This document shows positions 13,601 to 47,650 of a DNA stretch of 64,000 bases, piece after piece. Source of the stretch: an uncultured Hyphomicrobiales bacterium (GTDB lineage: Bacteria; Bacteroidota; Ignavibacteria; Kapaibacteriales; UBA2268); assembly GCA_964509335.1 (NCBI GenBank), contig CAZDXB010000010.1, positions 3,977-67,976 of the forward strand, written 5' to 3'. The translations under genes and the position numbers were made by a program. Positions within the stretch are counted from its first letter, which is position 1, and the number at the start of each line of letters is the position of its first letter. The notes under the pieces are model-generated. The model saw nothing but the letters and a program-made list of their open reading frames with translations, searched no databases and was not told the DNA's origin.

Positions 13601-13682
13601 CAAAGGGATTCTGAGCTATATTTCATAAATTTGATTTTTTGATTTTTCAACTAAAGCGGATTTTGAAATAAGCTAATAGGGA

Positions 13683-16447: not shown

Positions 16448-16459
16448 TAATAAAACAAC

Positions 16460-25315: not shown

Positions 25316-25371
25316 ATGTGTTTTGGAACTATTTTAATTTATTTCTCGTTTAATTATTACGACGTAGTTTC

Positions 25372-26931: not shown

Positions 26932-28539
26932 TTACATTCTGAACACTCCGTATTTCTGGTCTGGAATAGATGAATTCAAGGAAGCAGCTATGCCCAAAGC
27001 CAATGTCTCCCTTGTGTCTAGCGGGTCGATAATTCCGTCGTCCCAAAGTCTGGCGGAACTATAATACGGCGAGGCTTCTTGCTCGTATTTTTCAATAATA
27101 GGCTTTTTGATGGCTTCAATGTCCTTTTCGGACAGCTTCTCTCCCGCTCTTTCCAATTGCTTGATTTTAACCGTCGCCAGAACGTTAGCGGCTTGTTCGC
27201 CGCCCATAACGCATATCTTGCCGTGGGGCCACATCCATAACAGACGCGGATTGTATCCCCTGCCGCACATAGCGTAGTTGCCCGCTCCGTAAGAACCGCC
27301 GACTATTACGGTAAACTTCGGAACGTCGGCGTTGGCAACCGCGTGAACCATCTTCGCTCCGTCGCTCGCGATACCGCCGTGCTCATATTGCTTACCGACT
27401 ATGAATCCCGTAATATTCTGCAAAAACAAAAGCGGTATTTTCCTCTCGGTGCATAATTCTATAAAGTGCGCCCCTTTTTTGCTCGACTCGGAAAATAAAA
27501 CGCCGTTGTTAGCCAAAATTCCAACCGGATACCCCATTACGCGAGCGAAACAAGTAACTAAACTCGTCCCGTAAAGCTCCTTAAACTCCTGAAATCTGCT
27601 TCCGTCCACAATTCGCGCTATTATCTCCCTAATATCGAAGGGCATTCTAATATTTTGCGGCATAATGCCGTACATTTCCTCGGGGTCGTAATAAGGCTCT
27701 TCGGATTCCTCGCGCTTAAGCTGGAATTTTGTTTCCAAACCGAAGTTCTCGACTATGTTTCTCACGATTTTCAAAGCGTGCTCGTCGTTTTGCGCGTAAT
27801 GGTCGGAAACGCCCGAAATTTTACAGTGAACGTCCGCTCCGCCAAGTTCTTCGTCCGTAACTTTCTCGCCTGTCGCGGCTTTAACCAAAGGAGGACCGCC
27901 GATGAATATAGTCGCCTGATTGCGAACCATAACCGTCTCGTCGCTCATAGCGGGAACGTAGGCGCCGCCGGCGGTGCAAGAACCCATAACGCAAGCGATT
28001 TGCGGGATATTCAACGCCGACATCCTAGCCTGATTATAAAATATCCTGCCGAAATGGTCTTTATCGGGGAAAGTGCCTGACTGATACGGCAGAAAAATAC
28101 CGCCGGAATCCACTAAATAAATACAAGGAAGCCTGTTCTCCAAAGCTACTTCTTGCGCCCGAACGTGCTTCTTAATTGTCGTAGGAAAGTAAGTGCCGCC
28201 CTTAACCGTAGCGTCGTTCGCGACTATCATACACTCCCTTCCGTTAATAACGCCGACGCCCGTTACCATTCCCCCGCTCGGAGCGGCGTTATCGTACATA
28301 TCGTAAGCGGCGAACGGCGACAGCTCCAAAAAAGGCGTATCCTTGTCGCACAATAGCTTTATTCTATCTCTGACCAAAATTTTATCTCTGTCGAGATGCC
28401 GTTTTCTCGCCTTCTCGGACCCTCCCTTCTTTAATTCTTCGTATCTCTCTTTTAGCTGTTTTACTAACTTCAAAGAATTTTCTTTGTTCGCCTTAAAATC
28501 GGGGGATTGAGTTGAAATCTTCGACTTAAATCGATTCAT
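26932..28539 (-). CDS. Acyl-CoA carboxylase carboxyltransferase (beta) subunit, methylcrotonoyl-CoA carboxylase beta / glutaconyl-CoA decarboxylase alpha family
   Basis: Tandem crotonase-fold carboxyltransferase domains. 535 aa. High similarity pattern to MCCC2-type N-terminus ([18 protein letters not shown]). No biotin carboxylase/BCCP partner in the window. Confidence 0.75.
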
Positions 28540-28659: not shown

Positions 28660-29178
28660 CTACTTCTTTAACCTAAACTCCCAAATACAAGCGTAATCTT
28701 CGTCCGTAATTTCCGGCGGGCAGGAAATACACTCCGTCTCGAACCTCTCGTCAATCGTTTTGGCGAAATAGCCGTATTCTACTATTCCGACCGACTTACA
28801 AGGAAAGTCGGGCAAATTCTTCCTCCTTCTCGCGCTCTGCACCCTGCAAGTCTTTACGTAATATCTGACTGTATTATCATCGATAATTTCCACTCTGTCT
28901 TCGTTCAAAGTAGAGTAAAGCCTGTAAAGCAGAGCTTCGCCCAAGCCAGGAACGCCCGAGTTTTCGCCCAAATCCAAAAACTTCTTCAATCTGTTCGCTT
29001 CGACGACGGTGAATTTCCGCCACGCCTCTCTGTCCATATCAATTGCCGCGTCCATCCCGTATTTTTCTTCAATCGACAAGAACCAACAACCGTCGTGAGC
29101 GAGCCAATTCTTCGCGTAGATATTCGCCAACTCAAAAAGCTTTTCCTTAGGTAAATTATTGATTTTTTCTGAACCCAT
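28660..29178 (-). CDS. Hypothetical Cys-rich protein (172 aa) directly downstream of the DNA methyltransferase
   Basis: ORF with cysteines CW, CRVQ, CKSV, CISCP, YAC. No confident family assignment. Confidence 0.4.
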   Translation of the reverse strand: MGSEKINNLPKEKLFELANIYAKNWLAHDGCWFLSIEEKYGMDAAIDMDREAWRKFTVVEANRLKKFLDLGENSGVPGLGEALLYRLYSTLNEDRVEIIDDNTVRYYVKTCRVQSARRRKNLPDFPCKSVGIVEYGYFAKTIDERFETECISCPPEITDEDYACIWEFRLKK

Positions 29179-29210: not shown

Positions 29211-30164
29211 TTATGCCTCTTTGCTAATCTTAGAGCCGAAATTCATTTCCTTCGGGTCAACCAATCGCTCCAAAGCGCCGTCCGCCCTATAAAAATACGG
29301 CAGCGACTTAATCCGTTCGTCAAAATCAGCCTCGACGCTTTCTTCTCTTTCAAAAGCTATTTCCTCGCCAAAAATTGAACCGTCGCGAACGCCGAGATTT
29401 TCTTTGACTAATTCCAAATAATCGTCGTTTATTTCGTAACCTATAGAGCTTCTCCCAAGATTTTTAGCCGCCAATGAAGTAACGCCGCTACCCAAAAAAG
29501 GGTCTAATACCGTCTCGCCGACGAATGAATACATTTTGATAAATCGTCGCGGCAACTCCTCGGGAAACGCGGCTAAATGCTTGCCCTGCTTAGCTCCGGC
29601 AAAATTCCAATGCCCCGAAAAATAATTCTTCCATTCCTCTTTAGTCATTTCCGACGCTTCCTTTTGCTCTTTCGTCGGTTTTGGAGCCTTGCCCGGCTTC
29701 TTAAAAATCAAATTAAACTCGTAGTCAATCTCCACTATCCCGTTTCTCGGATACGGATACGAACCCATAATTACCGCGCCGCCCGTCGTGTTCATTGTGG
29801 TTCTCTTTTGCCAAATGATAGCTCCCATATAATCGAAGCCGATTGTCTCGGCGAACTTAATAATCTCCGTCCTAATGGGAATAATCTTATACCTACCGTA
29901 ATAAACCGAGCGAGCGAATTGGTCGCCTACGTTGACAATCATTTTACATCCGGGATGCAAAACCTCGAAGCAACGCGCCCAAACTAGATTCAGATGATTT
30001 ATATACTCTTCGTATGTTTGGTCGTAGCCTATTTGTTCTTCTTTTCCGTAATCCTTCAGTTGCCAGTAAGGCGGTGAAGTTACTATTAAATGAACGCTCC
30101 CGTCTTCGAACGATTTCATCAATCGAGAGTCGCCGATTATTATTTTATGAGACGTATTATGCAT
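29211..30164 (-). CDS. DNA methyltransferase, beta-class amino-MTase (PF01555 type). The SPPY motif suggests N4-cytosine, or N6-adenine.
   Basis: Motif IV SPPY at residues about 30-33. Motif I DPFLGSGVT near the C-terminus (the circular permutation typical of the beta class). Confidence 0.8.
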   Translation of the reverse strand: MHNTSHKIIIGDSRLMKSFEDGSVHLIVTSPPYWQLKDYGKEEQIGYDQTYEEYINHLNLVWARCFEVLHPGCKMIVNVGDQFARSVYYGRYKIIPIRTEIIKFAETIGFDYMGAIIWQKRTTMNTTGGAVIMGSYPYPRNGIVEIDYEFNLIFKKPGKAPKPTKEQKEASEMTKEEWKNYFSGHWNFAGAKQGKHLAAFPEELPRRFIKMYSFVGETVLDPFLGSGVTSLAAKNLGRSSIGYEINDDYLELVKENLGVRDGSIFGEEIAFEREESVEADFDERIKSLPYFYRADGALERLVDPKEMNFGSKISKEA

Positions 30165-30185: not shown

Positions 30186-33100
30186 TTACATTCCTCTCCT
30201 GTACTGACCGCCAATCTCGTAAAGCAACTGAGTTATCTGCCCCATAGAACAATGCTCGACTGTATTCAGAAGCTCCTCGAAAACGTTGCCGCCGGTCAGG
30301 GCGACCTCTCGCAATTTTTTAAGAGCTTCCTCTGAATCGCCGCTATGCTCGGCTTGGAAGTCTCGCAACTGCTCCAATCTCTTGCGTTTTTCTTCGTCGG
30401 TGGCTCTGGTTATATTCATATTGTCGTAAGGATTTTCCGCGTCTTCGTCAACGAAAGTATTGACGCCGACAATAGGATACTCGCCCGTTTCTTTCAGAGC
30501 CTCGTATTTCATCGACTCTTCCTGTATCTTCGAGCGCTGATACTGCGTCTCCATAGCGCCCATAACGCCGCCTCTTCTCGACAATCGCTCGAATTCCTTT
30601 AAAACGGCTTCTTCGACTAAATCGGTCAACTCCTCTATAATAAAAGCTCCCTGATTGGGGTTCTCGTTCTTAAGCATTCCGAACTCTTTAGCCAATATCA
30701 TTTGTATAGCCATAGCCCGGCGCACCGATTCTTCCGTTGGCGTCGTAACCGCCTCGTCGTAAGAATTAGTATGCAGCGAATTGCAATTGTCGTAATAAGC
30801 CAAAAGCCCCTGTAAGGTCGTTCTTATGTCGTTAAACGCAATTTCCTGAGCGTGAAGCGACCTGCCGGAAGTTTGAATATGATACTTCAGCTTTTGCGCC
30901 CTTTCGTTCGCTCCGTATTTGTCTCTCAAAGCTATAGCCCAAATCCTGCGAGCCACTCTGCCGATTACGGAATACTCCGCGTCCATACCGTTGGAAAAGA
31001 AATAAGACAGATTCGGCGCGAAGTCGTCCACGTCTATTCCGCGATTAATAAAATACTCGACGTAAGTAAATCCGTTCGCTAAAGTGAAAGCCAACTGCGT
31101 GATTGGATTAGCGCCCGCCTCGGCTATATGATAACCGCTTATGCTCAGCGAATAATACTTCTTGATTTCATTTCTCGACAAATACTCTTGCAAATCGCCG
31201 ATTAATTTCATAGCGAAATTGATTGAGAAAATGCAAGTATTCTGTCCTTGGTCCTCTTTCAACATATCCGCCTGAACGGTTCCTCGCAATTGCCTGAAAG
31301 TGTCTATCTTTAATCTCTCTTTTTCTTCGGCGTCCAACTCGCCCCTTTCTTTTCTAGCTTTCTCCAACTCTCTTCTATATGCCATAATGAAATAGAAAGC
31401 CACCATAATTGGCGCAGGCGCGTTTATCGTCATCGAAACCGACGTGAACGGGTCGGTTTGGTCGAACCCCTTCAAAAGAACGTCCATATCTCTTAATGTG
31501 CAAATAGAAACGCCGCTCTCGCCGATTTTGCCGTATATGTCGGGGTCTTCGTCGGGGTCTTCGCCGTAAAGCGTTATCCCGTCAAAAGCCACCGAAAGTC
31601 TCTTGGCTTTGTCGCCTTCGCATAAATAATGGAAGCGCTTGTTAGTTCGCTCCGGTCCGCCCTCGCCTGCAAATTGCCGCTTCGGGTCTTCGGTAGTTCT
31701 CTTAAACGGAAAAACTCCGGCGGTAAATGGAAACTCCCCGGGCAGATTCTCTTTATAAAAGAATTTTACGAGTTCGTACCAAGACTTATATTTCGGCAAA
31801 GCGACTTTCGGAATTTTACTGCCGGATAGGCTTTCAATCACCAAAGGAATAGAGTATTCCTTACCGGATATAGTATAATTAAGCGTGTCTTTTTGCAATT
31901 CCTTTTTCGTTTCGTCCCAATTGGATAGAAAATCCTTCGCCTCGTCGGAAAGCTCTTCCCACTTTTCCTTAAACGCTTCCTTCAGCGTCTTCATAGCGTC
32001 GGAATCTTCTATCTGCTTAGTCGCTTCTCTAATAGAGAATATATCCGAAGCCAACTGGGCTTGCTCTTCCGCGCTCTCTTTATATTTCCTGACCGATTCC
32101 GCAATTTCCGCCAGATAATTAATATTTTTGCTGTCGATTAAGCCGAAATCATCGGTTAGCTTAGTCGGCAGCTTTTCAATCATATCTGTATGCTCGCCGT
32201 AGCCGTCGCCCTTCTCTTTTTTGAGCAAGCCGAGTAAATCCTTGAACAATCTATTTACGCCGGAATTGTTGAATTGATTGCTCATCGTGGCGTAAACCGG
32301 CAACTCAAGCTCGTCGAGCGGAATCGACTTATCGACTTTACCCGGATTGTTCCTAAGCCAATTGATTTTTACTTCTCTGAAAGCGTCTTCTGAGCCTTGC
32401 TTTTCGAATTTGTTTATCACGACGAAATCCGCCAAATCCAGCATCTCGATTTTCTCCAATTGAGAGGGACCACCAAACTCCGCCGTCATAACATAAATCG
32501 AGTAATCGCAAATATCTACAACCGAGCTGTCGCCCTGTCCTATTCCGCTAGTCTCGACTATTATTAAATCGAAGCCGCAACTCTTCATAGCGCGAATAGA
32601 ATCGTCAACCGCCGCGCCGAGTTCGTTCAGGCTTCCTCTCGTAGCGAAACTTCTCAAAAACACACGATTGTTATATATCTGATTGAATCGAATTCTATCG
32701 CCCAACAAGGCGCCGCCAGTTCTTTGCTTAGATGGGTCGAAAGTTAAAACGCCTATATTAGCATTGTCGGTAAAAGACAGAAATCTGCCTATAATTTCAT
32801 CGACTAAAGAGCTTTTGCCGCAACCGCCTGTTCCGGTAACGCCCAAAACTAAGGACTTGCCTTTGTCGTATTTATCGTAAAGTTTCCTGATTTTCTCAAT
32901 ATCGCCGTTCTTGCTGGAATAATCCTCGAGATAAGTTAACTGCTTCGCTATTTCTCCGTGGCGCTCGACGTCGTTTTTCTTTATGTACTCCTCGTCGAAC
33001 TTAGGAAATCGCGAAACGTCCAGCTTTTCTCTGCGCTCTTTAATTCGATTTACGATATCCTCGGTTATACCGCCGATGCCGATTCTTTGACCGTCAACCG

Positions 33101-33443
33101 CGTGATATAGCTTAGTTACGCCGCATTCTTCCAACGCCTTAATTTCGGAAGGCAGGATAACGCCGCCGCCGCCGCCAAAAATCAATTTATCTTCGGCGCC
33201 CTTATTTTTAAGCTCGTCCGCGAGAAAGCGGAAATACTCGTTGTGTCCGCCTTGATACGAACTAACCAAAACGGCGTCCACGTCCTCTTGCAAGGCGACC
33301 GTTACGACTTCGCGGACTGAACGGTTATGCCCTAAATGAACTACCTCGACGCCTTTCTTTTGCAGCAATCTTCTATATAAATTTACAGAAACGTCGTGCC
33401 CGTCAAACAATGACGTCGCCGTCAACGCTTTCATCGAACTCAT
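30186..33443 (-). CDS. icmF: Fused isobutyryl-CoA mutase IcmF (B12-binding domain + MeaB-like G-protein + mutase catalytic domain)
   Basis: N-terminal B12-binding Rossmann fold (DGHD..V). P-loop GVTGTGGCGKSSL (MeaB-like). C-terminal methylmalonyl-CoA mutase-type TIM barrel. 1085 aa, matching the IcmF architecture. Confidence 0.85.
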   Translation of the reverse strand: MSSMKALTATSLFDGHDVSVNLYRRLLQKKGVEVVHLGHNRSVREVVTVALQEDVDAVLVSSYQGGHNEYFRFLADELKNKGAEDKLIFGGGGGVILPSEIKALEECGVTKLYHAVDGQRIGIGGITEDIVNRIKERREKLDVSRFPKFDEEYIKKNDVERHGEIAKQLTYLEDYSSKNGDIEKIRKLYDKYDKGKSLVLGVTGTGGCGKSSLVDEIIGRFLSFTDNANIGVLTFDPSKQRTGGALLGDRIRFNQIYNNRVFLRSFATRGSLNELGAAVDDSIRAMKSCGFDLIIVETSGIGQGDSSVVDICDYSIYVMTAEFGGPSQLEKIEMLDLADFVVINKFEKQGSEDAFREVKINWLRNNPGKVDKSIPLDELELPVYATMSNQFNNSGVNRLFKDLLGLLKKEKGDGYGEHTDMIEKLPTKLTDDFGLIDSKNINYLAEIAESVRKYKESAEEQAQLASDIFSIREATKQIEDSDAMKTLKEAFKEKWEELSDEAKDFLSNWDETKKELQKDTLNYTISGKEYSIPLVIESLSGSKIPKVALPKYKSWYELVKFFYKENLPGEFPFTAGVFPFKRTTEDPKRQFAGEGGPERTNKRFHYLCEGDKAKRLSVAFDGITLYGEDPDEDPDIYGKIGESGVSICTLRDMDVLLKGFDQTDPFTSVSMTINAPAPIMVAFYFIMAYRRELEKARKERGELDAEEKERLKIDTFRQLRGTVQADMLKEDQGQNTCIFSINFAMKLIGDLQEYLSRNEIKKYYSLSISGYHIAEAGANPITQLAFTLANGFTYVEYFINRGIDVDDFAPNLSYFFSNGMDAEYSVIGRVARRIWAIALRDKYGANERAQKLKYHIQTSGRSLHAQEIAFNDIRTTLQGLLAYYDNCNSLHTNSYDEAVTTPTEESVRRAMAIQMILAKEFGMLKNENPNQGAFIIEELTDLVEEAVLKEFERLSRRGGVMGAMETQYQRSKIQEESMKYEALKETGEYPIVGVNTFVDEDAENPYDNMNITRATDEEKRKRLEQLRDFQAEHSGDSEEALKKLREVALTGGNVFEELLNTVEHCSMGQITQLLYEIGGQYRRGM

Positions 33444-33488: not shown

Positions 33489-34628
33489 TTACATCAGCAT
33501 AGAACGCGCGATCACCAATCTTTGTATCTCGCTCGTCCCTTCGTATAGCTCGGTAATTTTTGCGTCTCTTAGATATCTTTCGGCGGCGAAATCCTCGGTG
33601 TAACCGTAACCGCCGTGAATCTGGATACATTTATTAGCGCAGAACGAAGCTACCTCCGAAGCTTTCAATTTAGCTTCAGCCGCTTCTTTAGAATATCTCA
33701 TACCTTTGTCTTTCATCATAGAAGCTTTCCAGTTTAGCAGCCAAGCGGCGTCGTATTCGGTCTCCATATTCGCCAGCATCCACTGAATCGCTTGGAAGTT
33801 AGCTATCGGCTGACCGAACTGCTTTCTTTCTTTAGCGTAATTTGTAGCGTCTTCTATTGAAGCCCTCGCTATGCCGAGCGCTTGAGCCGCAATGCCCAAC
33901 CTGCCGCCGTCGAGCGTAACCATTGACAATTTAAAACCTTTGTTCAATTCGCCCAACAAGTTTTCTTTGGGAATTTCGGCGTTGTCCAAGATTATTTCCG
34001 CAGTAGAAGAGCCTCTGATTCCAAGTTTCTTTTCAAGTTTGCCTATGCTAACTCCGGGCGTTCCTTTTTCTATAATAAAAGCCGAAATGCCTTTAGTTTT
34101 AGCGCCGGGGTCGGTTGAAGCTATTAAAACGTAAACTTCCGCTTCGCCGCCGTTAGTGCAAAACAGCTTCGAGCCGTTCAAAACCCACTTATCTCCTTCA
34201 AGCTTAGCGGTAGTTTTGGTGTTGCCCGCGTCGGAGCCGGCTTCGGACTCGGTTAACGAAAAACTGCCGATTTTTTTGCCGCTTAACAAATCGGGAAGAT
34301 ACTTCTGCTTTTGTTCTTCCGTGCCGAATCTAAAAATCGGGTCGCATACGAGCGACGAATGAGCCGATACTATTACGCCGGTAGAAGCGCACCAGCGCGA
34401 AATCTCCTCGAGAGCTAAAAAGTAGGATACGTGATCCATACCCGCTCCGCCGTAATCGACCGGATAAGCTATTCCCATAAGACCAAGCTCGGAGGCTTCG
34501 TCGATTACTTCTTTCGGGAACATATGTTCTTTGTCAACTTTGTCGGCGATTGGAGCGATTTTTTCTTTCGCAAACTTCGTTACCATCTCCTTCAGCATCT
34601 TCTGTTCTTCGGTGAGCAAAAATTCCAT
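33489..34628 (-). CDS. Acyl-CoA dehydrogenase (short/branched-chain type)
   Basis: ACAD N-terminal, middle and C-terminal domains. Catalytic-base region YEGTSEIQRLVIAR. 379 aa. Confidence 0.9.
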   Translation of the reverse strand: MEFLLTEEQKMLKEMVTKFAKEKIAPIADKVDKEHMFPKEVIDEASELGLMGIAYPVDYGGAGMDHVSYFLALEEISRWCASTGVIVSAHSSLVCDPIFRFGTEEQKQKYLPDLLSGKKIGSFSLTESEAGSDAGNTKTTAKLEGDKWVLNGSKLFCTNGGEAEVYVLIASTDPGAKTKGISAFIIEKGTPGVSIGKLEKKLGIRGSSTAEIILDNAEIPKENLLGELNKGFKLSMVTLDGGRLGIAAQALGIARASIEDATNYAKERKQFGQPIANFQAIQWMLANMETEYDAAWLLNWKASMMKDKGMRYSKEAAEAKLKASEVASFCANKCIQIHGGYGYTEDFAAERYLRDAKITELYEGTSEIQRLVIARSMLM

Positions 34629-34888: not shown

Positions 34889-36046
34889 ATGCCAATCAAC
34901 AGAAATTTAAATCAAGAGCAGATATTGTTACGCGACACGGTCAGAAAATTCGCCGAAGAAGAAATCAAAGAAAAAGCGAAGGAACTCGACGAAAAAGAAG
35001 AATTCTCTTACGAAATAACTCAAAAAATGGCGGAAATGGGCTTTCTCGGAGCCTTTCTGCCGGACGAATACGGAGGCTCGGCTTTAGACTACGTTTCTTA
35101 CATTATCTTAGTCGAAGAGCTTTCTAGAATCGACGGCTCGCAAGGAGCGACGATAGCCGCGCACAATTCGCTCGGCGTAGGTCCGCTCCTGTATTTCGGA
35201 AACGATGAGCAAAAAAAGAAATATCTGCCTAAATTAGCGGAAGGTTCCCTCTGGGGCTTCGGACTCACCGAACCGGAAGCAGGCTCCGACGCCGGCAACA
35301 CCCAAACAACCGCCGTTAAAGACGGAAACGAATGGATCTTAAACGGCTCGAAAATATTTATTACAAACGCTTCGACCGACGTTACTCTAGGCTCGACAAT
35401 ACTTGCTTGCACAGGAAAAAACAACAAAAGAAAAGAACTTACTTGCTTTATCGTCGAAAACGACGCTCCCGGATACACGGCTCGCCCTATGAAAAAGAAA
35501 ATGATGTGGCGCTCCTCGAACACAAGCGAGATTTACCTCGAAGATTGCCGCGTCCCCGAAAAAAATATACTAGGCAAGCGCGGAGACGGTTTTAAGCAAA
35601 TGCTATCGACCTTAGACAACGGACGCCTTTCAATCGCTTCAATGGGACTGGGACTAGCGCAAGGAGCTTTGGACGCCGCTTTAAAATACGCCAAAGAAAG
35701 AAAGCAATTCGGCAAACATATTTCCACTTTTCAAGCTAACGCCTTTAAACTCGCCGATATCGATATGGGAGTTGAACTAGCGAGAAATTATCTTTACGAC
35801 GTATGTCGTATGCTCGACGAAGGCAAACGAATAACCAAAGAAGGAGCCATTTGCAAGCTATACTGTTCCGAACTAGCCAGAGCGGCGGCGAACCATTGCG
35901 TTCAAATTCACGGCGGTTACGGGCTAATGAAAGAATACGACGCCGAGAAATACTACAGAGACCAAAAACTGCTTGAAATCGGCGAAGGAACCTCCGAAAT
36001 CCAAAGATTGGTTATATCGAGAAGTATAGGTTGCTACGACGTTTAG
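34889..36046 (+). CDS. Acyl-CoA dehydrogenase (second paralog, divergently transcribed)
   Basis: ACAD fold with GEGTSEIQRLVISR. 385 aa. Confidence 0.9.
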   Translation: MPINRNLNQEQILLRDTVRKFAEEEIKEKAKELDEKEEFSYEITQKMAEMGFLGAFLPDEYGGSALDYVSYIILVEELSRIDGSQGATIAAHNSLGVGPLLYFGNDEQKKKYLPKLAEGSLWGFGLTEPEAGSDAGNTQTTAVKDGNEWILNGSKIFITNASTDVTLGSTILACTGKNNKRKELTCFIVENDAPGYTARPMKKKMMWRSSNTSEIYLEDCRVPEKNILGKRGDGFKQMLSTLDNGRLSIASMGLGLAQGALDAALKYAKERKQFGKHISTFQANAFKLADIDMGVELARNYLYDVCRMLDEGKRITKEGAICKLYCSELARAAANHCVQIHGGYGLMKEYDAEKYYRDQKLLEIGEGTSEIQRLVISRSIGCYDV

Positions 36047-36127: not shown

Positions 36128-36859
36128 ATGGCGATAGATAGAAACTTTATAAATAAGCTCCCAAACAATATACTCTTAGCGGAACAGAGGATAGTCGACG
36201 CGTTTTATCAGACTATGGAAATCCATACAATGGCGCAAGACAAAACCGAGTTCTACAACGACTTCTTAGACCTATTCAGTTTCTATCAAGTTTACGCCGA
36301 GAAACACGCCCTCGACGTTTCTTTTCCAAAATTAACGGCAAACCCCGAAGGCAATCTAGAAATCATCATTAGCTTTTTCCGAAACAGATACAGAATTATC
36401 TCCAAAAAAGTTAAAAAATACGCCAGCGAAAAAATAGTAGAAGAAAAAAAGAGCAAATTCGAGGCTATGCTTCACGGAGAAGATTATTACAAATTCACAA
36501 CCGAAGAGCTAAAAGAACTGAAAATCAACCTTCAATTCTTAAAAAATACTCTCAAAACAAGCGAGTATTTGGACCACAAATACGTTAAAAGACTTATAAA
36601 GCGGGTTGACGGAATTTTAAAAGAATTAAGAGCGGAAATGCCCAATTTAGACCAGCTTTGGGGCTTAACTGGAGAAGCCGGCATCTTAGTCGGAAGAGGA
36701 AAGGAAAAAGCCGACCTCTTAGTTATAAAAATTAAAGAGATACTAAAGATAGTTTGGGAAGCTCAAGCCAGAGCCGAGGAATTATCCGACGACACGCCGA
36801 CTATTGATTTGAGATACAAAAAAAAAGAGAAAAAAGATAAAGACAAATTAGATTATTAA
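36128..36859 (+). CDS. Hypothetical protein with a K/D-rich C-terminus
   Basis: ORF only. No recognisable motif. Confidence 0.35.
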   Translation: MAIDRNFINKLPNNILLAEQRIVDAFYQTMEIHTMAQDKTEFYNDFLDLFSFYQVYAEKHALDVSFPKLTANPEGNLEIIISFFRNRYRIISKKVKKYASEKIVEEKKSKFEAMLHGEDYYKFTTEELKELKINLQFLKNTLKTSEYLDHKYVKRLIKRVDGILKELRAEMPNLDQLWGLTGEAGILVGRGKEKADLLVIKIKEILKIVWEAQARAEELSDDTPTIDLRYKKKEKKDKDKLDY

Positions 36860-36919: not shown

Positions 36920-37963
36920 ATGGTAGGAATAGTGGGTTACGGTTCTTACGTTCCTAGTTACAGGATAAGAACGCGTACTATAGCCGAACAATGGGGCGCC
37001 GACCCGTCCACAATCGAAAACGGATTACTAATCAAAGAAAAATCCGTTCCCGGCTGGGACGAAGACACGATAACGATATCGGTCGCCGCCGCCAAAAACG
37101 CCGTAGCAAGAGCGGGAATATCCCCCGACAAAATCGGAGCCGTTTATATCGGCTCGGAATCGCATCCATACGCGGTCAAGCCTTCCGGCACAATATTAAT
37201 AGACGCGCTCGGCATCGGACCGAACGTTCACGTAGCCGATTATGAATTCGCCTGCAAAGCCGGCTCCGAAGCGATGTTCGTCTCTTACAGCCACGTTAAA
37301 GCCGGCAATATGGACTACGCTATGGGAATCGGATCGGACACTTCGCAAGGCGCCCCGGGCGACGCTTTAGAATATTCAGCCGCCGCCGGAGGTTCCGCTT
37401 TTATTTTTGGCAAGGAAAATATTTTAGCGAACGTGTTAGAAACGCACTCGTTCACATCCGACACGCCCGACTTCTGGAGACGCGAATACCAACATTACCC
37501 GAGACACGGCGGAAGATTCACGGGCGAGCCCGCGTACTTCAAACACCTCTTAGGATGCGGCAAAGCGCTTCTTGAAAAATCCGGCATTAAACCCGAAGAA
37601 TTCAAATACGCCGTCTTTCATATGCCCAACGGCAAATTCCCGCTGAAAGCGGGAAAAAAGCTCGGATTCACAAATAAACAAATAGAGCAAGGCTGGGTTG
37701 TCAATTTAATGGGCAACACCTACTCCGGCTCTTCGCCGACCGGTTTAGCGTCGATATTGGACGTAGCCAAGCCGGGAGACAAAATCTTTATGGTCTCCTT
37801 CGGTTCCGGCGCCGGAAGCGACGGATTTGTTTTCGAGGCAACGGACAAAATCACGGCGGCTCAACCCAAAGCGCCGACGGTTAAGGATTACCTCGACGAC
37901 AAAATCTATCTCGACTACGGAAAATACGTCGCTTACAGAAAGAAGATTAGATACAACGTCTAG
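36920..37963 (+). CDS. Archaeal-type hydroxymethylglutaryl-CoA synthase
   Basis: MVGIVGYGSYVPSYRI....IAEQWG, 347 aa, thiolase-fold condensing enzyme. Matches the short archaeal HMGCS type that works with the thiolase/DUF35 partners. Confidence 0.8.
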   Translation: MVGIVGYGSYVPSYRIRTRTIAEQWGADPSTIENGLLIKEKSVPGWDEDTITISVAAAKNAVARAGISPDKIGAVYIGSESHPYAVKPSGTILIDALGIGPNVHVADYEFACKAGSEAMFVSYSHVKAGNMDYAMGIGSDTSQGAPGDALEYSAAAGGSAFIFGKENILANVLETHSFTSDTPDFWRREYQHYPRHGGRFTGEPAYFKHLLGCGKALLEKSGIKPEEFKYAVFHMPNGKFPLKAGKKLGFTNKQIEQGWVVNLMGNTYSGSSPTGLASILDVAKPGDKIFMVSFGSGAGSDGFVFEATDKITAAQPKAPTVKDYLDDKIYLDYGKYVAYRKKIRYNV

Positions 37964-38007
37964 TCTAAATTGAAAACAAATGTTATAATAAATTTTGGAG
38001 GTTAATT

Positions 38008-39156
38008 ATGCGCGATGTCGCTATTATCGGCGTCGGAATTACAAAATTCGGAGAGCTATGGGACCAAAGCTATAGAGACGTTTTCGCCGAAGCCGCTCTT
38101 AAAGCTCTCGACAACGCCGGCGTCGAAAAGTTAGACTCAATGTATATCGGAGCTATGTCTTCCGGTCTATACGTTCATCAGGAACACACTTCGTCTTTAA
38201 TGGCGGATTATATCGGTCAAGCGGGCGTTCCGGCTCTTAGAGTCGAATCGGCTTGCTCTTCCGGCGGAATGGCGGTTAAAACAGGCTTTATGGAAGTCGC
38301 CTCGGGAATGAGCGATTTCGTCCTCGCCGGCGGAGTCGAAAAAATGTGGGACGCCGACGACGGCTCTTTTGTGCTTGCCACAGCCGCCGACCAAGAATTT
38401 GAAGCGTTTCACGGAGTTACTTTCCCCGGACTATACGCTATGATAGCTAACGCCTATATGAATCAATACGGCTTAACGAGGGAAGAACTGGCGCAAATTC
38501 CAATAAAAAGTCATAAACACTCGGTCGGCAATCCTTACGCCCAATATCCATTCGCGATTAACTTGGACGCCGTAATGAAATCGCCGATGGTAGCCGAGCC
38601 TTTAAGACTAATGGATTGTTCGCCAATCACCGACGGCGCCGCCGCGGTTATTCTTTGCCCCTTGGAAAAAGCCAAAGAATTCACTGACAAAGCGGTCAAA
38701 ATACTAGGCGTCGGAGCCGCGACCGGTCCGATTGCTTTGCACGACCACAAAGACTTAACTAAACTCGACGCTGTCAGATTATCCGGCGAGCGAGCTTACA
38801 AAATGGCGGGCGCGACCAAAGACGACATTTCGTTCGTCGAGGTTCACGATTGCTTCTCGATAGCCGAAGTAATCGTCGCCGAAGAGCTCGGATTTTTCGA
38901 TTACGGCAAAGCCGGCAAAGCCATCGCAGAAGGCGCGGGAACTTACGGCGACAAAATCGTAATCAACCCCAGCGGCGGCTTAAAAGCGAAAGGACATCCG
39001 GTCGGCGCGACCGGCATCGCTCAATTAGTCGAAGCTACGATTCAGCTCAGAGGCGAAGCGGGAGACCGACAAATTAAGGACATTAAACTCGGTATGACCC
39101 AAAATATGGGCGGCTCCGGAGGCAGTTCTGTTACACATATTTTGGAGGCTGTATAA
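38008..39156 (+). CDS. Archaeal-type acetoacetyl-CoA thiolase (thiolase superfamily, SCP-x-like)
   Basis: MRDVAIIGVG.TKFGE N-terminus. Active-site Cys in ESACSSG. C-terminal GHPVGATG. 382 aa. Confidence 0.85.
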   Translation: MRDVAIIGVGITKFGELWDQSYRDVFAEAALKALDNAGVEKLDSMYIGAMSSGLYVHQEHTSSLMADYIGQAGVPALRVESACSSGGMAVKTGFMEVASGMSDFVLAGGVEKMWDADDGSFVLATAADQEFEAFHGVTFPGLYAMIANAYMNQYGLTREELAQIPIKSHKHSVGNPYAQYPFAINLDAVMKSPMVAEPLRLMDCSPITDGAAAVILCPLEKAKEFTDKAVKILGVGAATGPIALHDHKDLTKLDAVRLSGERAYKMAGATKDDISFVEVHDCFSIAEVIVAEELGFFDYGKAGKAIAEGAGTYGDKIVINPSGGLKAKGHPVGATGIAQLVEATIQLRGEAGDRQIKDIKLGMTQNMGGSGGSSVTHILEAV

Positions 39157-39554
39157 TGGCTAATAGTCAACGTTCAACCAGAGAAATTCCAATTAGATAC
39201 AGATTAGAAGCGCGAAAATTCGCTTGCGGAACGGTTTCGCTGGCGAGAAGATATATATGCCCTGATTGTTCGCATTCGAATTGCAAAGACTACGAGCGGA
39301 TTACGCTAAAAGGAACCGGCAAAATACTTACTTACACGGTAATCCACATACCCGCCGACCAATTCGCCAAGGAAGCGCCCTTCCCCGTCGCGGTTATCGA
39401 AACCGACGAGGGAGCGCGGCTCACGGCGCAAATTGTCGATTGCGAGCCGGAAAACGTAAAAATCGGCGCGAAAGTCGAACTCGTCTTCCGAAAAATCGGC
39501 GAAGAAGGCGAATCGGGCATCATCAACTACGCCTATAAAGCAAAACTAGCGTAA
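39156..39554 (+). CDS. DUF35 Zn-ribbon/OB-fold protein (scaffold of the thiolase/HMG-CoA synthase complex)
   Basis: Start overlaps the thiolase stop. C-x2-C...C-x2-C zinc ribbon CPDCSHSNC. OB-fold segment. 132 aa. Confidence 0.8.
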   Translation: MANSQRSTREIPIRYRLEARKFACGTVSLARRYICPDCSHSNCKDYERITLKGTGKILTYTVIHIPADQFAKEAPFPVAVIETDEGARLTAQIVDCEPENVKIGAKVELVFRKIGEEGESGIINYAYKAKLA

Positions 39555-39580: not shown

Positions 39581-39661
39581 CTCCTTCCCAAATTCCAATT
39601 TGGGAAGGAGCTGTAACTATTTGTAAATAAACTAATTCCCAAATTGAAATTTGGGAATTAG
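39581..39661. repeat. Two perfect palindromes of the dispersed TTCCCAAATT..AATTTGGGAA family
   Basis: ctccttcccaaatt-cc-aatttgggaaggag (39581..39610) and ctaattcccaaatt-ga-aatttgggaattag (39632..39661). Confidence 0.8.
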
Positions 39662-39759: not shown

Positions 39760-40542
39760 GTGAATAAATGGACAAAACTAAGTATTGAATACGCTAACCA
39801 AAGGTCGTATCTTGACGACTTATTTCAAGTTTATCCCACAATTCCCGAAGGCGTTAGAGAAATCGACCAAGAAATTTGGACCGAAGTAGAGAAAGCCTTC
39901 AATCGCAAGGACAATAAATCGCTAATTAAAAAATTGTTGACGCTAGACTTATTCCCCATTAAAGACAGCTATGTCGCTTATTTGAAAAGAGACAAAACGG
40001 CAATTGAAAGAAATCCTAGAACGATTAACCGTATTAGCGGTAGGCTTTACGAAATGGGACTGGATAAAATATTTGAAAGATGCAGCGAACCGAAAGAAAC
40101 AAATCGTCAAATTGGACCGATGTTCAGAAATTGGATTAGTAAAAAATCGTTGGGAATTGAACCGGTCAATTTGAAAATTTTTTCCGCTAACGAAAAAGAC
40201 GGCGTTTTGGAAGCTGGCGATAAAGCAATGATGGATTTCGCTAAGGAACGTCTGGGATACAAGTTAAATAAAGGCTTAGACTTTATCGGCAGATTCAACG
40301 GCAAATATGTAATCGGCGAAGCAAAGTTCCTAACCGATTTCGGCGGGCATCAAAACGCCCAATTCAACGATGCAATTAATACGCTCAAAGCGAAAGGCGT
40401 TAAAGCTGAAAAAATCGCTATACTAGACGGAGTCCTATATATCAAAGGTCAAAACAAAATGTATAAAGCGATAACCGAGAAGTACAAGAACGTCAACATT
40501 ATGAGCGCCCTTGTTTTAAGAGAATTTTTATATCAATTATAA
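39760..40542 (+). CDS. Putative type II restriction endonuclease (PD-(D/E)xK-like)
   Basis: Immediately upstream (4-bp gap) of a DNA MTase. Candidate catalytic signature D(FIGRFNGKYV)IGEAKF. No other family match. 260 aa. Confidence 0.5.
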   Translation: MNKWTKLSIEYANQRSYLDDLFQVYPTIPEGVREIDQEIWTEVEKAFNRKDNKSLIKKLLTLDLFPIKDSYVAYLKRDKTAIERNPRTINRISGRLYEMGLDKIFERCSEPKETNRQIGPMFRNWISKKSLGIEPVNLKIFSANEKDGVLEAGDKAMMDFAKERLGYKLNKGLDFIGRFNGKYVIGEAKFLTDFGGHQNAQFNDAINTLKAKGVKAEKIAILDGVLYIKGQNKMYKAITEKYKNVNIMSALVLREFLYQL

Positions 40543-40546
40543 CGCT

Positions 40547-41608
40547 ATGGAAAATTTACTTATAAAAAGCGATAATATTAAAGGATTAAATTACCTTCTT
40601 GATGAAAGGCGTTTAGAAGGCAAAATTGACTTAGTCTATATTGACCCCCCTTTTGCAATTAGCCGAAATTTTACCATAACAGACAGTAGAGCTTCGACAA
40701 TAAGTAACGCGAGAAACGGTAACATCGCCTACGCCGACAAATTATTGGGAAACGAATTTATAGAATTTCTGCGACAAAGATTAATTCTACTTAAAAAACT
40801 ATTATCGGTAAAAGGCTCAATTTACCTACATACTAATTATAAAATCGGCCATTACGTAAAAGTAATGATGGACGAAGTTTTCGGTCCTAAAAATTTTAGG
40901 AACGACATAACAAGAATAAAATGTAATCCAAAAAATTTCAATCGAGTCGGTTACGGGAATATGAAAGACTTAATTCTGTTTTATTCAAAATCCTCGAGCC
41001 CAATTTGGAACGAACCTAAAGAAAAATATTCACAAAGAGACCTTGAAAAGCTCTTTCCTAAAAAAGACAAACACGGAAGAAGATATACAACCGTGCCAAT
41101 CCATGCTCCGGGAGAAACCGAAAACGGAAAATCAAATCAGCCGTTCAAAGGGATAATGCCGCCCGAGGGAAGACATTGGAGAACCGACGTGGAAACCTTA
41201 GAGCGTTGGGATAAGAAAGGTCTTATCGAGTGGTCGTCATCAGGCAATCCAAGAAAGAAAATCTACGCCGACGAGAGAGAAGGAAAAAGAGTGCAAGATA
41301 TATGGGAATACAAAGACCCTCAATACCCATCATATCCAACTGAAAAAAACGAAAAGATGCTCGATTTAATTATTAGAACATCGTCAAATAAAAACAGTAT
41401 AGTTATAGATTGTTTTTCCGGCTCCGGCGTTACGCTTAAATTAGCACAGATTAACGGTAGAAAATGGATAGGTATAGATGATTCAGAACACGCTATTAAA
41501 GCGTCGATAGAAAAAATTGAGAAAATCGAAGACAATCTATTTGACGAGAAACCTAATTTCAATTACATTGACTTAGAAAAAAAGCGAAGAAGAGAGAAAC
41601 GCGTATAA
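40547..41608 (+). CDS. DNA methyltransferase, beta-class amino-MTase (N6-adenine or N4-cytosine)
   Basis: Motif IV DPPF near the N-terminus (LVYIDPPFA). Motif I DCFSGSGVT near the C-terminus. 353 aa. Confidence 0.8.
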   Translation: MENLLIKSDNIKGLNYLLDERRLEGKIDLVYIDPPFAISRNFTITDSRASTISNARNGNIAYADKLLGNEFIEFLRQRLILLKKLLSVKGSIYLHTNYKIGHYVKVMMDEVFGPKNFRNDITRIKCNPKNFNRVGYGNMKDLILFYSKSSSPIWNEPKEKYSQRDLEKLFPKKDKHGRRYTTVPIHAPGETENGKSNQPFKGIMPPEGRHWRTDVETLERWDKKGLIEWSSSGNPRKKIYADEREGKRVQDIWEYKDPQYPSYPTEKNEKMLDLIIRTSSNKNSIVIDCFSGSGVTLKLAQINGRKWIGIDDSEHAIKASIEKIEKIEDNLFDEKPNFNYIDLEKKRRREKRV

Positions 41609-47515: not shown

Positions 47516-47650
47516 TCTAATTCCCAATTTGGAATTTGGAAATTAGGATAAAAAAAATGAAATTTGGATAAACTTTAGAGCGCCGCCTATTTCCCAAATT
47601 GAAATTTGGGAAATAGGATAAATTAGGATAAAATTGAAATTTGGGAAATA
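47516..47650. repeat. Cluster of three copies (one imperfect, one perfect, one half) of the dispersed palindrome family in a 370-bp non-coding region
   Basis: ctaattcccaatttggaatttggaaattag (imperfect). ctatttcccaaattgaaatttgggaaatag (perfect, 47587..47616). aaattgaaatttgggaaatag (half). Additional hairpin attcccagctcgactgggaat at about 47425. Confidence 0.75.

Follow-up and report, generated by a model that had tools for sequence, protein, structure and literature searches.

Three adjacent genes in a 64-kb stretch of DNA from a Kapabacteria-like bacterium (the window, i.e. the whole stretch that was analysed) encode a catalytically intact member, judged by its sequences, of the thiolase/HMG-CoA synthase (HMGCS)/DUF35 family. 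We consider it probable, at roughly 75%, that, instead of opening a mevalonate pathway, this trio handles the HMG-CoA and acetyl-CoA end of a Liu-type route for leucine/isovalerate, whichever the direction in which it operates. The assignment is made because the trio is linked to genes for the beta subunit of methylcrotonyl-CoA carboxylase (MCC-beta), enoyl-CoA hydratase, biotin carboxylase (BC), BCCP and acyl-CoA dehydrogenase (ACAD), because HMG-CoA lyase occurs in the corresponding setting in sister genomes, and because no mevalonate signature is found nearby. The same linkage, together with the neighbouring IcmF gene, strongly backs the original prediction that HMG-CoA may serve branched-chain acyl-CoA metabolism. 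As to direction, a catabolic operation in which the trio replaces the lyase is tentatively favoured over de novo synthesis of isovaleryl-CoA, at somewhat below an even chance and on genomic context.

Layout and identity of the trio

The order HMGCS, thiolase, DUF35 had been noticed before, and the three plus-strand reading frames fit it exactly (Table 1). The overlap of the thiolase stop codon with the start of DUF35, described at the same time, is the sequence TAATG, in which base 39156 is common to both genes (1 nt). The gap between HMGCS and thiolase is 44 nt, and a GGAG or GGAGG ribosome-binding site lies ahead of each gene, i.e. the three genes are adjacent and operon-like. Together with the IVD-like ACAD1 they form one plus-strand gene run with short gaps and one start/stop overlap. 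The palindrome pair past the DUF35 stop (fold -42.5 kcal/mol, z = -6.4) is likely the end of the transcription unit; it recurs at two more intergenic sites in the window.

Table 1. Position of the trio and of the neighbouring features in the window.
Feature	Coordinates	Strand	Remarks
Methylcrotonyl-CoA carboxylase beta (MCC-beta, carboxyltransferase)	26932..28539	-	divergent unit
DUF6125 protein	28660..29178	-	PF19620, 250 bits; conserved IcmF partner
IcmF, fused isobutyryl-CoA mutase/GTPase	30186..33443	-	NF045497, 1586.6 bits (cut-off 1500)
ACAD2, short-chain/butyryl-CoA dehydrogenase type	33489..34628	-	heads divergent unit; ACAD domains
ACAD1, acyl-CoA dehydrogenase	34889..36046	+	first gene of plus-strand unit; all ACAD Pfam domains
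243-aa Lys/Glu-rich protein	36128..36859	+	between ACAD1 and HMGCS
HMGCS, archaeal-type HMG-CoA synthase	36920..37963	+	347 aa
Archaeal-type acetoacetyl-CoA thiolase	38008..39156	+	382 aa
DUF35 scaffold protein	39156..39554	+	132 aa; coupled translationally to thiolase
Two similar 30-nt palindromes	39581..39661	none	past DUF35 stop

HMGCS passed the cut-offs of two archaeal equivalog models, NF003274 (525.3 bits, cut-off 244) and TIGR00748 (495.7 bits, cut-off 353.35), and stayed under that of the bacterial HMGS model TIGR01835 (110.1 bits, cut-off 360.35). Its best PDB match is 6esq_I (425.8 bits), and its catalytic tetrad E80/C112/H234/N266 is invariant in all 69 aligned sequences; in 6ESQ numbering the tetrad is E82/C114/H238/N270 (PMC12960953). 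The thiolase passed PRK06064 (517.9 bits, cut-off 420) and was a close miss for NF053570, the Methanothermococcus acetyl-CoA acetyltransferase equivalog (525.5 bits, cut-off 600), so that its sequence assigns it to the subfamily and not to that equivalog. It best matches 6esq_A (384.8 bits) and carries the motifs ACSSG (Cys83), HDCF (residue 280) and GHP (residue 329). Like the HMGCS tetrad, these thiolase elements (the Cys, HDCF and GHP) are conserved between the window proteins and 63-69 relatives. The DUF35 protein has the PF01796 OB domain (81 bits) and best matches 6esq_E (95.7 bits). In the N-terminal zinc ribbon, which has four Cys in such subunits, the first CxxC is replaced (KFAC), the CPDC is retained and an extra Cys stands four residues on; no zf-ChsH2 domain was detected in the Pfam search. 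With 6ESQ/6ET9 as top PDB matches of all three proteins and with the catalytic residues intact, the trio belongs to the archaeal type of complex that had been proposed for it.

The archaeal prototype condenses three acetyl-CoA to HMG-CoA via a shared CoA site, and the window HMGCS is 56% identical to that of the Methanothermococcus complex 6ESQ. Of the features of this complex (published in 2018, cited through PMC12960953), the E-C-H-N tetrad, CxS, HDxF, GHx and the OB domain are all kept. The differences are that the window host is bacterial, that the neighbours are leucine/isovalerate and not mevalonate genes, that DUF35 is without the first CxxC of its zinc ribbon, that the thiolase is under the equivalog cut-off, and that complex formation and channelling are putative in the window trio.

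Other known systems were compared as well. PhlABC of Pseudomonas and MucABC of Streptococcus belong to the same three-subunit family, have bacterial hosts and provide the next-best PDB matches of HMGCS (182-198 bits). According to PMC12960953, they have lost the E-C-H-N tetrad and HDxF and catalyse Friedel-Crafts acylation; the window trio keeps both and this type was rejected. Like the window, the steroid system Ltp2-ChsH2 and the benzoylsuccinyl-CoA thiolase BbsAB pair a thiolase fold with a DUF35 protein, but they have no HMGCS partner. An affinity to the steroid proteins, which the original prediction had named as evidence against itself, was not found: the thiolase scored 98 bits with Ltp2 versus 385 with the archaeal thiolase, the DUF35 protein 45 bits with ChsH2 versus 96 with the archaeal DUF35, i.e. 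by score the trio sides with the archaeal complex. The BbsAB type was likewise rejected (BbsB 220 bits; BbsA model 33.8, cut-off 250).

Neighbours in the window

The trio run faces a divergent unit in the order ACAD2, IcmF, DUF6125, MCC-beta. Both acyl-CoA dehydrogenases and the IcmF that had been reported beside the trio are thus present, and of the carboxyltransferase described as "MCC-beta/GcdA-like" the first half of the label stands while the second does not: the protein scores 759.7 bits with human MCCB and 747.7 with P. aeruginosa MCC-beta, as opposed to about 250-280 with classical PCC-beta and 164 with GcdA, and the GcdA identity was rejected.

The best PDB match of ACAD1 is Bcd (375 bits; IVD 264 bits). 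Its motif IGEGT has Gly instead of Tyr and retains the Glu, a change from Tyr to Gly that we take to be the same as in IVD, and its orthologues (68-78% identity) have the same motif. By this motif and by the HMG-CoA lyase that follows its orthologues (see below), ACAD1 is a candidate isovaleryl-CoA dehydrogenase, despite its higher score with Bcd. ACAD2, with the motif LYEGT, is of the canonical butyryl-CoA dehydrogenase type and is 67% identical to the ACAD preceding IcmF in the related locus L087. The position of IcmF is conserved in four loci (L006, L009, L010 and L012), and a DUF6125 protein, with a predicted V4R/Bet3-like fold, follows IcmF in L087 and L088 too. The 243-aa protein has no Pfam or NCBIfam match; of the related loci, only L009 and L012 have it in this place. 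The window also encodes a CrtI-family desaturase and a UbiA prenyltransferase, neither of which is specific to the mevalonate route.

Methylglutaconyl-CoA hydratase, BC and BCCP (the parts of MCC alpha) and HMG-CoA lyase are absent from the 64-kb window, and MCC-beta lies 9.7 kb from the trio on the opposite strand. The missing hydratase and BC/BCCP and the remote MCC-beta count against the Liu-type assignment.

Distribution and conserved synteny

The trio was matched in at least 600 genome stretches, and 79 of the 80 best loci are bacterial, from about ten phyla. Its occurrence in a bacterium, which the original prediction pointed out, is therefore no exception. Synteny was recorded in 82 loci, a census with a bias to the window protein's 80 nearest relatives, within at most 10 kb on each side of the trio; 36 of these loci form a subset with long flanks. 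The gene order is near-invariant, the thiolase being in place in 74 and DUF35 in 73 of the 82 loci, which excludes chance as the cause of the order.

MCC-beta orthologues (67-83% identity) stand beside the trio in 24 of the 82 loci and, where the flanks are long, in 15 of 36; another count has them next to the trio in 21 loci besides the window. Enoyl-CoA hydratase (17 loci), BC (16) and BCCP (12) are further neighbours in the census. These genes recur in one operon order, HMGCS-THL-DUF35-MCCb-ECH-BC-BCCP, in loci labelled Cloacimonadota, WOR-3, Stahlbacteria, Acidobacteriota/Aminicenantes, Holophagales, Zixibacteria, Glassbacteria and Ignavibacteria. The best model for the operon hydratase is gamma-carboxygeranoyl-CoA hydratase, below its cut-off. 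An acyl-CoA dehydrogenase is often among the neighbours as well; it stands just upstream in L081 (from the ORF table) and L068 (from the tblastn census), and with it these loci would cover all steps from isovaleryl-CoA to acetyl-CoA without a lyase.

Two observations weigh against the assignment here. Twelve of the 36 long-flanked loci, e.g. from Gemmatimonadota, have no Liu-type gene near the trio, and in Ignavibacteriaceae the trio is followed by AtuA and surrounded by housekeeping genes (pimt, miaA, prfB).

The HMG-CoA lyase itself is found in sister Kapabacteria (L089-L091), where it directly follows the ACAD1 orthologue; in L089 the next gene is BCKDH E2. An ACAD, the trio and a lyase-like gene (PRK05692, 191 bits) stand together in L004/L005, which represent one lineage, and an ACAD and the trio in the clade of the window. 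The lyase adjoins the trio only in L004/L005 (1 out of 82 loci).

The Liu cluster of pseudomonads (LiuA-E) serves leucine/isovalerate catabolism. The trio clusters resemble it in that MCC-beta, enoyl-CoA hydratase, BC/BCCP and an IVD-like ACAD are grouped near the trio in related loci. They differ in that BC and BCCP are separate genes and that the lyase (LiuE) is missing in nearly all of them, with the trio in its place; in the window the set is moreover split over two divergent units and is without hydratase and BC/BCCP.

Direction of the pathway

In the favoured catabolic operation, isovaleryl-CoA would be converted to 3-methylcrotonyl-CoA by ACAD1, this to 3-methylglutaconyl-CoA by MCC, and this in turn to HMG-CoA by a hydratase which in the window organism would be encoded elsewhere in the genome. 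The trio would take the slot of HMG-CoA lyase and reverse its two Claisen steps (HMG-CoA + 2 CoA -> 3 acetyl-CoA), the strongly favourable thiolysis pulling the unfavourable HMGCS reversal through channelled acetoacetyl-CoA. A thioester that is lost with the free acetoacetate of the lyase route would thereby be saved. The thiolase condensation is estimated at about +25 kJ/mol, and the overall reaction 3 acetyl-CoA + H2O = HMG-CoA + 2 CoA at roughly 0 to -10 kJ/mol, close to equilibrium. For citrate synthase, reverse operation in vivo is known. The ATP-dependent BC/BCCP would point to the carboxylating, i.e. catabolic, direction. On the other side, the thioester hydrolysis step of HMGCS is usually treated as irreversible, we know of no reverse activity of an HMGCS complex, and the operon of L004/L005 holds both the trio and a lyase, which a simple replacement does not predict. 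That the trio, running backwards, has taken over from HMG-CoA lyase in the leucine/isovalerate catabolism of many bacterial phyla may be suggested from gene context as a rather doubtful proposal.

The same pathway could also run forward. HMG-CoA would be dehydrated, decarboxylated and reduced to isovaleryl-CoA while IcmF converts butyryl-CoA to isobutyryl-CoA, both yielding primers for iso-fatty acids or leucine. In keeping with such a route, iso-C15 lipids are abundant in many of the phyla concerned. This direction would be analogous to the AIB route of myxobacteria and corresponds to the first suggestion of the original prediction, of which the pathway is supported and the direction is one of two live options, in a context that is more catabolic (Liu-like). 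Forward synthesis is the only reaction demonstrated for the complex (as summarised in PMC12960953), and in M. xanthus an operon HMG-CoA synthase is dedicated to de novo isovaleryl-CoA synthesis (PMC5389471). As in that AIB pathway (MvaS, LiuC, AibA/B, AibC), HMG-CoA synthase is here tied to the series HMG-CoA, 3-methylglutaconyl-CoA, 3-methylcrotonyl-CoA and isovaleryl-CoA and not to mevalonate. However, MvaS is a stand-alone bacterial-type HMGS and works with the decarboxylase AibA/B and the reductase AibC (PMC5389471), whereas the trio has the ATP-dependent MCC (beta, BC, BCCP) and ACADs as partners, in a setting that looks catabolic. The window and the annotated recurrent neighbour families yielded neither AibA/B (CoA-transferase fold) nor AibC. 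The synteny with hydratase, MCC-beta and ACAD is compatible with either direction. The pairing of ACAD1 orthologues with HMG-CoA lyase and BCKDH E2 in the sister genomes is in turn a catabolic setting, and the lyase in the operon of L004 would destroy the HMG-CoA made by the complex. We regard the forward route as somewhat unlikely.

A ketogenesis-like HMG-CoA cycle appears improbable. Here the complex would run forward and a lyase, adjacent in L004 and supposedly encoded elsewhere in the genome of the window organism, would split HMG-CoA to acetoacetate and acetyl-CoA, which frees CoA from acetoacetyl-CoA derived from butyryl-/isobutyryl-CoA oxidation. ACAD2 and IcmF could feed acetoacetyl-CoA into it, a 3-hydroxyacyl-CoA dehydrogenase is near the trio in three loci (L025, L031, L036), and the lyase-like gene of L004/L005 would fit, but this adjacency is confined to the single locus mentioned above. 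Moreover, the cycle wastes a thioester with no obvious benefit to a bacterium, and it leaves the linkage to MCC-beta, hydratase and BC/BCCP unexplained.

Equally little probability is given to ordinary isoprenoid metabolism, in which the trio would start a mevalonate pathway and the other genes for it would be located in another part of the genome. The prototype complex has this role in archaea, and the two prenyl-related genes of the window could be read in its favour were they specific to that route. The earlier statement that neither HMG-CoA reductase nor mevalonate kinase is visible agrees with our searches: no HMGR, GHMP kinase, IPK or IDI was found among the scanned window ORFs of at least 150 aa, and no HMGR (DAMGxN) or GHMP signature within up to 10 kb of the trio on each side in the 82 loci, which argues against a mevalonate role. 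So does the fact that bacterial mevalonate genes are normally clustered and that the archaeal-type pathway has been reported among bacteria only in Chloroflexi (PMC6107057). Cloacimonetes MAGs, furthermore, are reported to hold a complete MEP pathway and, of the mevalonate enzymes, only these first two (PMC7852524).

Finally, it is very improbable that the trio acts as a housekeeping system for acetoacetyl-CoA thiolysis or synthesis (a thiolase system), with only a loose clustering of acyl-CoA genes, as the one third of well-flanked loci without a Liu-type neighbour and the housekeeping surroundings in Ignavibacteriaceae might suggest, since the invariant HMGCS tetrad indicates selection on HMG-CoA chemistry and an operon with MCC-beta, hydratase and BC/BCCP on the same strand and in the same order recurs in about eight phyla.

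Implications

HMG-CoA synthase in prokaryotes is usually taken as a marker of the mevalonate pathway, and "the first two mevalonate enzymes" are counted as partial isoprenoid pathways in MAGs of the FCB group. Our comparison instead suggests that the complex is part of branched-chain acyl-CoA metabolism in a wide range of bacteria; we found no description in the literature of the trio as a link between acetyl-CoA and this metabolism. If true, pathway annotations would have to be corrected, and arguments on the distribution and evolution of the mevalonate pathway would be affected. The compact operon defined here in multiple phyla is directly testable.

If the trio runs forward, isovaleryl-CoA and iso-fatty acids would have a second and widespread de novo source, which could be of use in engineering branched C5 products. 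Reverse operation would amount to the physiological reversal of a supposedly irreversible enzyme, akin to reversed citrate synthase, and a new energy-saving ending of leucine/isovalerate degradation. The thioester saved would amount to about one ATP per leucine as compared to the lyase route, which would be relevant to anaerobes living on low energy.

Identity of the trio proteins

The genes of the trio, i.e. HMG-CoA synthase (HMGCS), thiolase (THL) and DUF35 protein, were found exactly at the coordinates of the original prediction, all on the forward strand. The proposed overlap is also there, the stop codon of the thiolase and the start codon of DUF35 having base 39156 in common (TAATG), and a GGAG or GGAGG site precedes every trio gene.

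Genes of the trio and its surroundings in the window (ACAD, acyl-CoA dehydrogenase; MCC-beta, methylcrotonyl-CoA carboxylase beta subunit; IcmF, fused isobutyryl-CoA mutase/GTPase)
Feature	Position	Strand	Length (aa)	Remarks
Carboxyltransferase, MCC-beta type	26932-28539	-		divergent unit
DUF6125	28660-29178	-		divergent unit
N6/N4 DNA methyltransferase	29211-30164	-		inside ACAD2-IcmF-DUF6125-MCC-beta unit, same orientation
IcmF	30186-33443	-		1586.6 bits (cut-off 1500)
ACAD2	33489-34628	-		divergent from trio unit
ACAD1	34889-36046	+		upstream of trio, same strand
Lys/Glu-rich ORF	36128-36859	+	243	between ACAD1 and HMGCS; without family match
HMGCS	36920-37963	+	347	
Thiolase	38008-39156	+	382	
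DUF35 protein	39156-39554	+	132	

The window HMGCS passed the archaeal equivalogs NF003274 (525.3 bits, cut-off 244) and TIGR00748 (495.7 bits, cut-off 353) and failed the bacterial HMGS model (110 bits, cut-off 360). The thiolase is of the PRK06064 type (517.9 bits, cut-off 420) and narrowly missed the Methanothermococcus acetyl-CoA acetyltransferase equivalog (525.5 bits, cut-off 600), while the third ORF carries the DUF35 OB domain (PF01796, 81 bits). The top solved-structure relative of all three proteins was the M. thermolithotrophicus thiolase/HMGCS/DUF35 complex, 6ESQ/6ET9 (HMGCS 425.8, thiolase 384.8 and DUF35 95.7 bits), which bears out the suggested archaeal complex type.

True complexes can be told from repurposed bacterial ones by the E-C-H-N tetrad of HMGS and by the CxS, HDxF and GHx motifs of the thiolase (PMC12960953). 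The window HMGCS keeps the tetrad (E80, C112, H234, N266), the window thiolase keeps Cys83, HDCF and GHP, and across 63-69 relatives the catalytic motifs of both show little or no variation. The sole departure is in the DUF35 zinc ribbon, the first CxxC of which is lost in the window clade. As judged from sequence, the window trio is a genuine case of the complex family with predicted intact active sites. Its proteins are ordinary members of this known family, and public MAGs already annotate these genes as HMG-CoA synthase.

Scores together with catalytic residues led to the rejection of membership in three related systems, the steroid-type Ltp2/ChsH2, BbsAB and PhlABC/MucABC: Ltp2 (98 bits), ChsH2-DUF35 (45 bits), BbsB (220 bits) and PhlA/PhlC/PhlB all score far below 6ESQ/6ET9.

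Distribution and origin

The nearest HMGCS proteins (73-82% identity) are labelled Ignavibacteria, Kapabacteria, FCB group or Chloroherpetonaceae; the window also contains TonB-dependent receptor, T9SS-tail and OlsF genes. A Logan contig carries an identical HMGCS protein in the same gene order. Scanning one genome per species gave at least 600 matching stretches, the best 80 of which (59-80% identity) comprise 79 bacterial ones and one Aenigmarchaeota contig. Labels among these best 80 include Kapabacteria, Ignavibacteria/Melioribacter, Cloacimonadota, WOR-3, Stahlbacteria, Gemmatimonadota, Calditrichota, Acidobacteriota/Aminicenantes, Zixibacteria, Eisenbacteria, Glassbacteria and Planctomycetota, many labels being MAG bin names and some plainly wrong, e.g. 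'Hyphomicrobiales'. Two of the loci, L015 and L021, come from Melioribacter.

In a quick, rough neighbour-joining tree of HMGCS with two archaeal sequences only, these two branched outside the bacterial sequences, whose clades broadly matched the taxon labels. Together with the 56% identity between the Methanothermococcus and window HMGCS, this suggests that 'archaeal-type' is a family name and does not denote a recent import. A recent horizontal-transfer island was likewise rejected: GC content is unremarkable (0.43-0.47), the whole divergent cluster is conserved in four related loci (L006, L009, L010, L012), and in the rough tree the bacterial sequences sort broadly by taxon label.

Gene neighbourhood of the trio

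The 80 closest relatives of the window HMGCS were fetched and, together with the Kapabacteria locus L004 and the window (82 loci), subjected to our own ORF calling and clustering; reference proteins were placed separately by tblastn. Thiolase follows HMGCS in 74 of the 82 loci and DUF35 comes next in 73, the exceptions being mostly contig ends. An MCC-beta orthologue lies near the trio in 24/82 loci (67-83% identity to the window MCC-beta, PCC-like paralogues being clearly separate at 32-38%), followed in frequency by enoyl-CoA hydratase (ECH; 17/82, top model gamma-carboxygeranoyl-CoA hydratase, below cut-off), biotin carboxylase (BC; 16/82), biotin carrier protein (BCCP; 12/82), ACAD (12/82), AtuA (10/82), IcmF (5/82), DUF6125 (4/82) and HMG-CoA lyase (1/82). 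Flanks of at least 6 kb upstream and 8 kb downstream are available for 36 loci; MCC-beta occurs in 15 of these, and one or more of the listed neighbours in 24.

Three layouts recur. In the window type, MCCb-DUF6125-IcmF-ACAD is divergent from ACAD-(243-aa ORF)-HMGCS-THL-DUF35; it is complete in L006, L009 and L012, and present in L010 as far as the flank extends, the 243-aa ORF occurring at this position elsewhere only in L009 and L012. The second layout, HMGCS-THL-DUF35-MCCb-ECH-BC-BCCP, runs on a single strand and is found in about eight phyla. Two such loci have an ACAD directly upstream (L081 in the ORF table, L068 by tblastn), and are thereby predicted to encode all enzymes from isovaleryl-CoA to acetyl-CoA with no lyase. 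The third, pimt-miaA-HMGCS-THL-DUF35-AtuA-AtuA_ferredoxin-prfB, is that of Ignavibacteriaceae/Melioribacter.

The window carboxyltransferase had been described as MCC-beta/GcdA-like. The first half of this description holds (about 760 bits; human MCCB 759.7, P. aeruginosa MCC-beta 747.7) and the GcdA likeness does not (164 bits). Its top match is 9tps (764.7 bits), deposited as 'PCC beta', whereas classical PCC-beta chains reach about 250-280 bits. In loci of the Cloacimonadota/Stahlbacteria type an acyl-CoA mutase adjoins the trio; it was not counted as an IcmF equivalent, because its neighbours (a PCC-like carboxyltransferase, methionine gamma-lyase and an epimerase-like protein of glyoxalase fold) suggest a propionate module. 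Further neighbour families, once annotated, gave no hint of the pathway direction.

AtuA is a second conserved partner of the trio. The AtuA-family protein (PF07287, 507 bits) follows the trio in L013, L014, L015, L017-L020 and L023, e.g. at L018 6793-8160, and homologues are also near it in an Acidobacteriota (L053) and a Chlorobiota locus (L054). Ignavibacteria-type loci have a separate AtuA ferredoxin-like protein (e.g. L013 14674-14982). A sequence search of AtuA against the PDB found no relative. In L053 (1200-2606) and L035, the gene after HMGCS encodes a protein of 469 aa that has a zinc ribbon and a DUF35 OB domain at its C-terminus and 340 N-terminal residues without assignment; this protein is perhaps a variant or fused scaffold.

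The position of HMG-CoA lyase

In one Kapabacteria lineage (L004) an HMG-CoA lyase-like gene (PRK05692, 191 bits) comes after ACAD-HMGCS-THL-DUF35. In three more Kapabacteria-type contigs, found with a lyase query, the lyase directly follows the ACAD and the trio is absent; in one of them BCKDH E2 comes next. The ACADs of the lyase contigs are orthologues of the window ACAD1 (68-78% identity, same IGEGT motif). It follows that the slot after an IVD-like dehydrogenase holds, within one clade, lyase, trio plus lyase, or trio alone. ACAD2 has the canonical YEGT motif and groups with the ACAD preceding IcmF elsewhere. In the IGEGT of ACAD1 the Tyr is replaced by Gly, the substitution by which the pocket of isovaleryl-CoA dehydrogenase is widened.

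We found no description of such an operon in the literature on the trio or on HMGCS with MCC, isovalerate or syntrophy. Nor did we find an account of the systematic operon linkage of the trio to MCC, enoyl-CoA hydratase and ACAD, or of its alternation with HMG-CoA lyase, both of which are seen in the gene context.

Other features of the window

DUF6125 homologues, including those of Kapabacteria, Deferrimicrobium and Acetivibrio, are 64-79% identical among those listed and share four invariant Cys. The order ACAD-IcmF-DUF6125 occurs in unrelated contigs (DUF6125 at L087 7001-7525 and at L088 3541-4122); in Acetivibrio DUF6125 is not directly after IcmF. A PDB sequence search gave no match, and the AF2 model (pLDDT 93.5) weakly matched V4R/Bet3-like ligand-binding domains, e.g. 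PoxR/MopR sensor and TRAPP Bet3 (TM about 0.58, E 2e-3). Possibly DUF6125 serves the fused mutase as an accessory protein that has yet to be characterised. The N6/N4 methyltransferase is missing at its divergent-unit position in L006, L009 and L012; L006 has a homologue downstream of its DUF35 gene.

tRNA and Rfam scans of the window gave no matches. Around the operon, the scans for sigma-70 promoters and for terminators did not outperform shuffled sequences. The only feature standing out there is a set of paired palindromes after DUF35 (39581-39661, fold z = -6.4). The palindrome TTCCCAAATTNNAATTTGGGAA has 6 matches in the window, with none expected by chance, as pairs ~50-70 nt apart at this site (39585-39657) and two other intergenic ones (1577-1648, 47521-47612), which has the look of a family of REP-like or terminator elements. 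The pair after DUF35 is directly followed by a low-GC stretch (39760-41608, forward strand, GC 0.38) with a restriction enzyme of the Tsp45I family (PF06300, 412 bits) and the methyltransferase belonging to it; the same position past DUF35 in L004 holds the HMG-CoA lyase. The gene set at 12476-17206 (forward strand) brings to mind decaprenyl-phosphoryl-sugar epimerisation, in this case in a member of the FCB group: it comprises UDP-galactopyranose mutase, a short-chain dehydrogenase, a prenyltransferase of the UbiA family (PRK08238, 609 bits) and a DprE1-like FAD oxidase (331 bits, below cut-off). A strong AT skew (-0.49) across 24001-26000, where nusA and the 5' part of infB lie on the minus strand, is probably due to the N-terminal region of the 983-aa IF-2, which is rich in Lys and Glu.

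Pathway role and direction

The trio is linked to Liu-type (leucine/isovalerate catabolic) genes across phyla, with mevalonate signatures absent nearby, and we infer that the complex joins acetyl-CoA and HMG-CoA for an isovaleryl-CoA pathway. The catabolic direction, with the complex run backwards, is our favoured but tentative reading (probability about 0.4). It is favoured because the trio is partnered by an ATP-dependent carboxylase and by ACADs and not by an AibA/B-type decarboxylase and a reductase, because ACAD1 orthologues pair with lyase and BCKDH E2, and because the trio occupies the lyase position. An operon with both trio and lyase is awkward for a complex that replaces the lyase.

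Iso-C15 lipids are probably abundant in many of the phyla involved. A forward route from HMG-CoA to isovaleryl-CoA, like the myxobacterial AIB route, has biochemical precedent (PMC5389471) but fits the gene context less well than catabolism, and we regard it as somewhat less likely.

That the trio starts an ordinary mevalonate pathway is unlikely. As the original prediction had stated, the window shows neither mevalonate kinase nor HMG-CoA reductase: the ORFs scanned, i.e. those of at least 150 aa not nested in a longer annotated gene, except the 5'-end ORFs 12-530 and 957-1442, include no reductase, GHMP kinase, IPK or IDI. Across the 82 loci DAMGxN, which we take to be the HMG-CoA reductase signature, and the presumed GHMP kinase motif were both absent. 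Published surveys describe the mevalonate genes of bacteria as clustered, and Chloroflexi are reportedly the only bacteria with the archaeal-type pathway (PMC6107057). The literature on Ignavibacteria and mevalonate yielded only a remark on Cloacimonetes MAGs, which reportedly have a complete MEP pathway and, of the mevalonate route, only thiolase and HMGCS (PMC7852524). The mevalonate reading shares the remaining probability with an HMG-CoA cycle and with the absence of any link.

The catabolic route would demand that the complex work in reverse (HMG-CoA + 2 CoA -> 3 acetyl-CoA + H2O), and we know of no demonstration of such a reversal. By a rough estimate the overall reaction is close to equilibrium, since the thiolase step (about +25 kJ/mol) and the synthase step almost offset each other, and channelled thiolysis could therefore pull the reversal of HMGCS when the CoA/acetyl-CoA ratio is high. 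Relative to the lyase route, the catabolic organism would then gain one extra acetyl-CoA per leucine.
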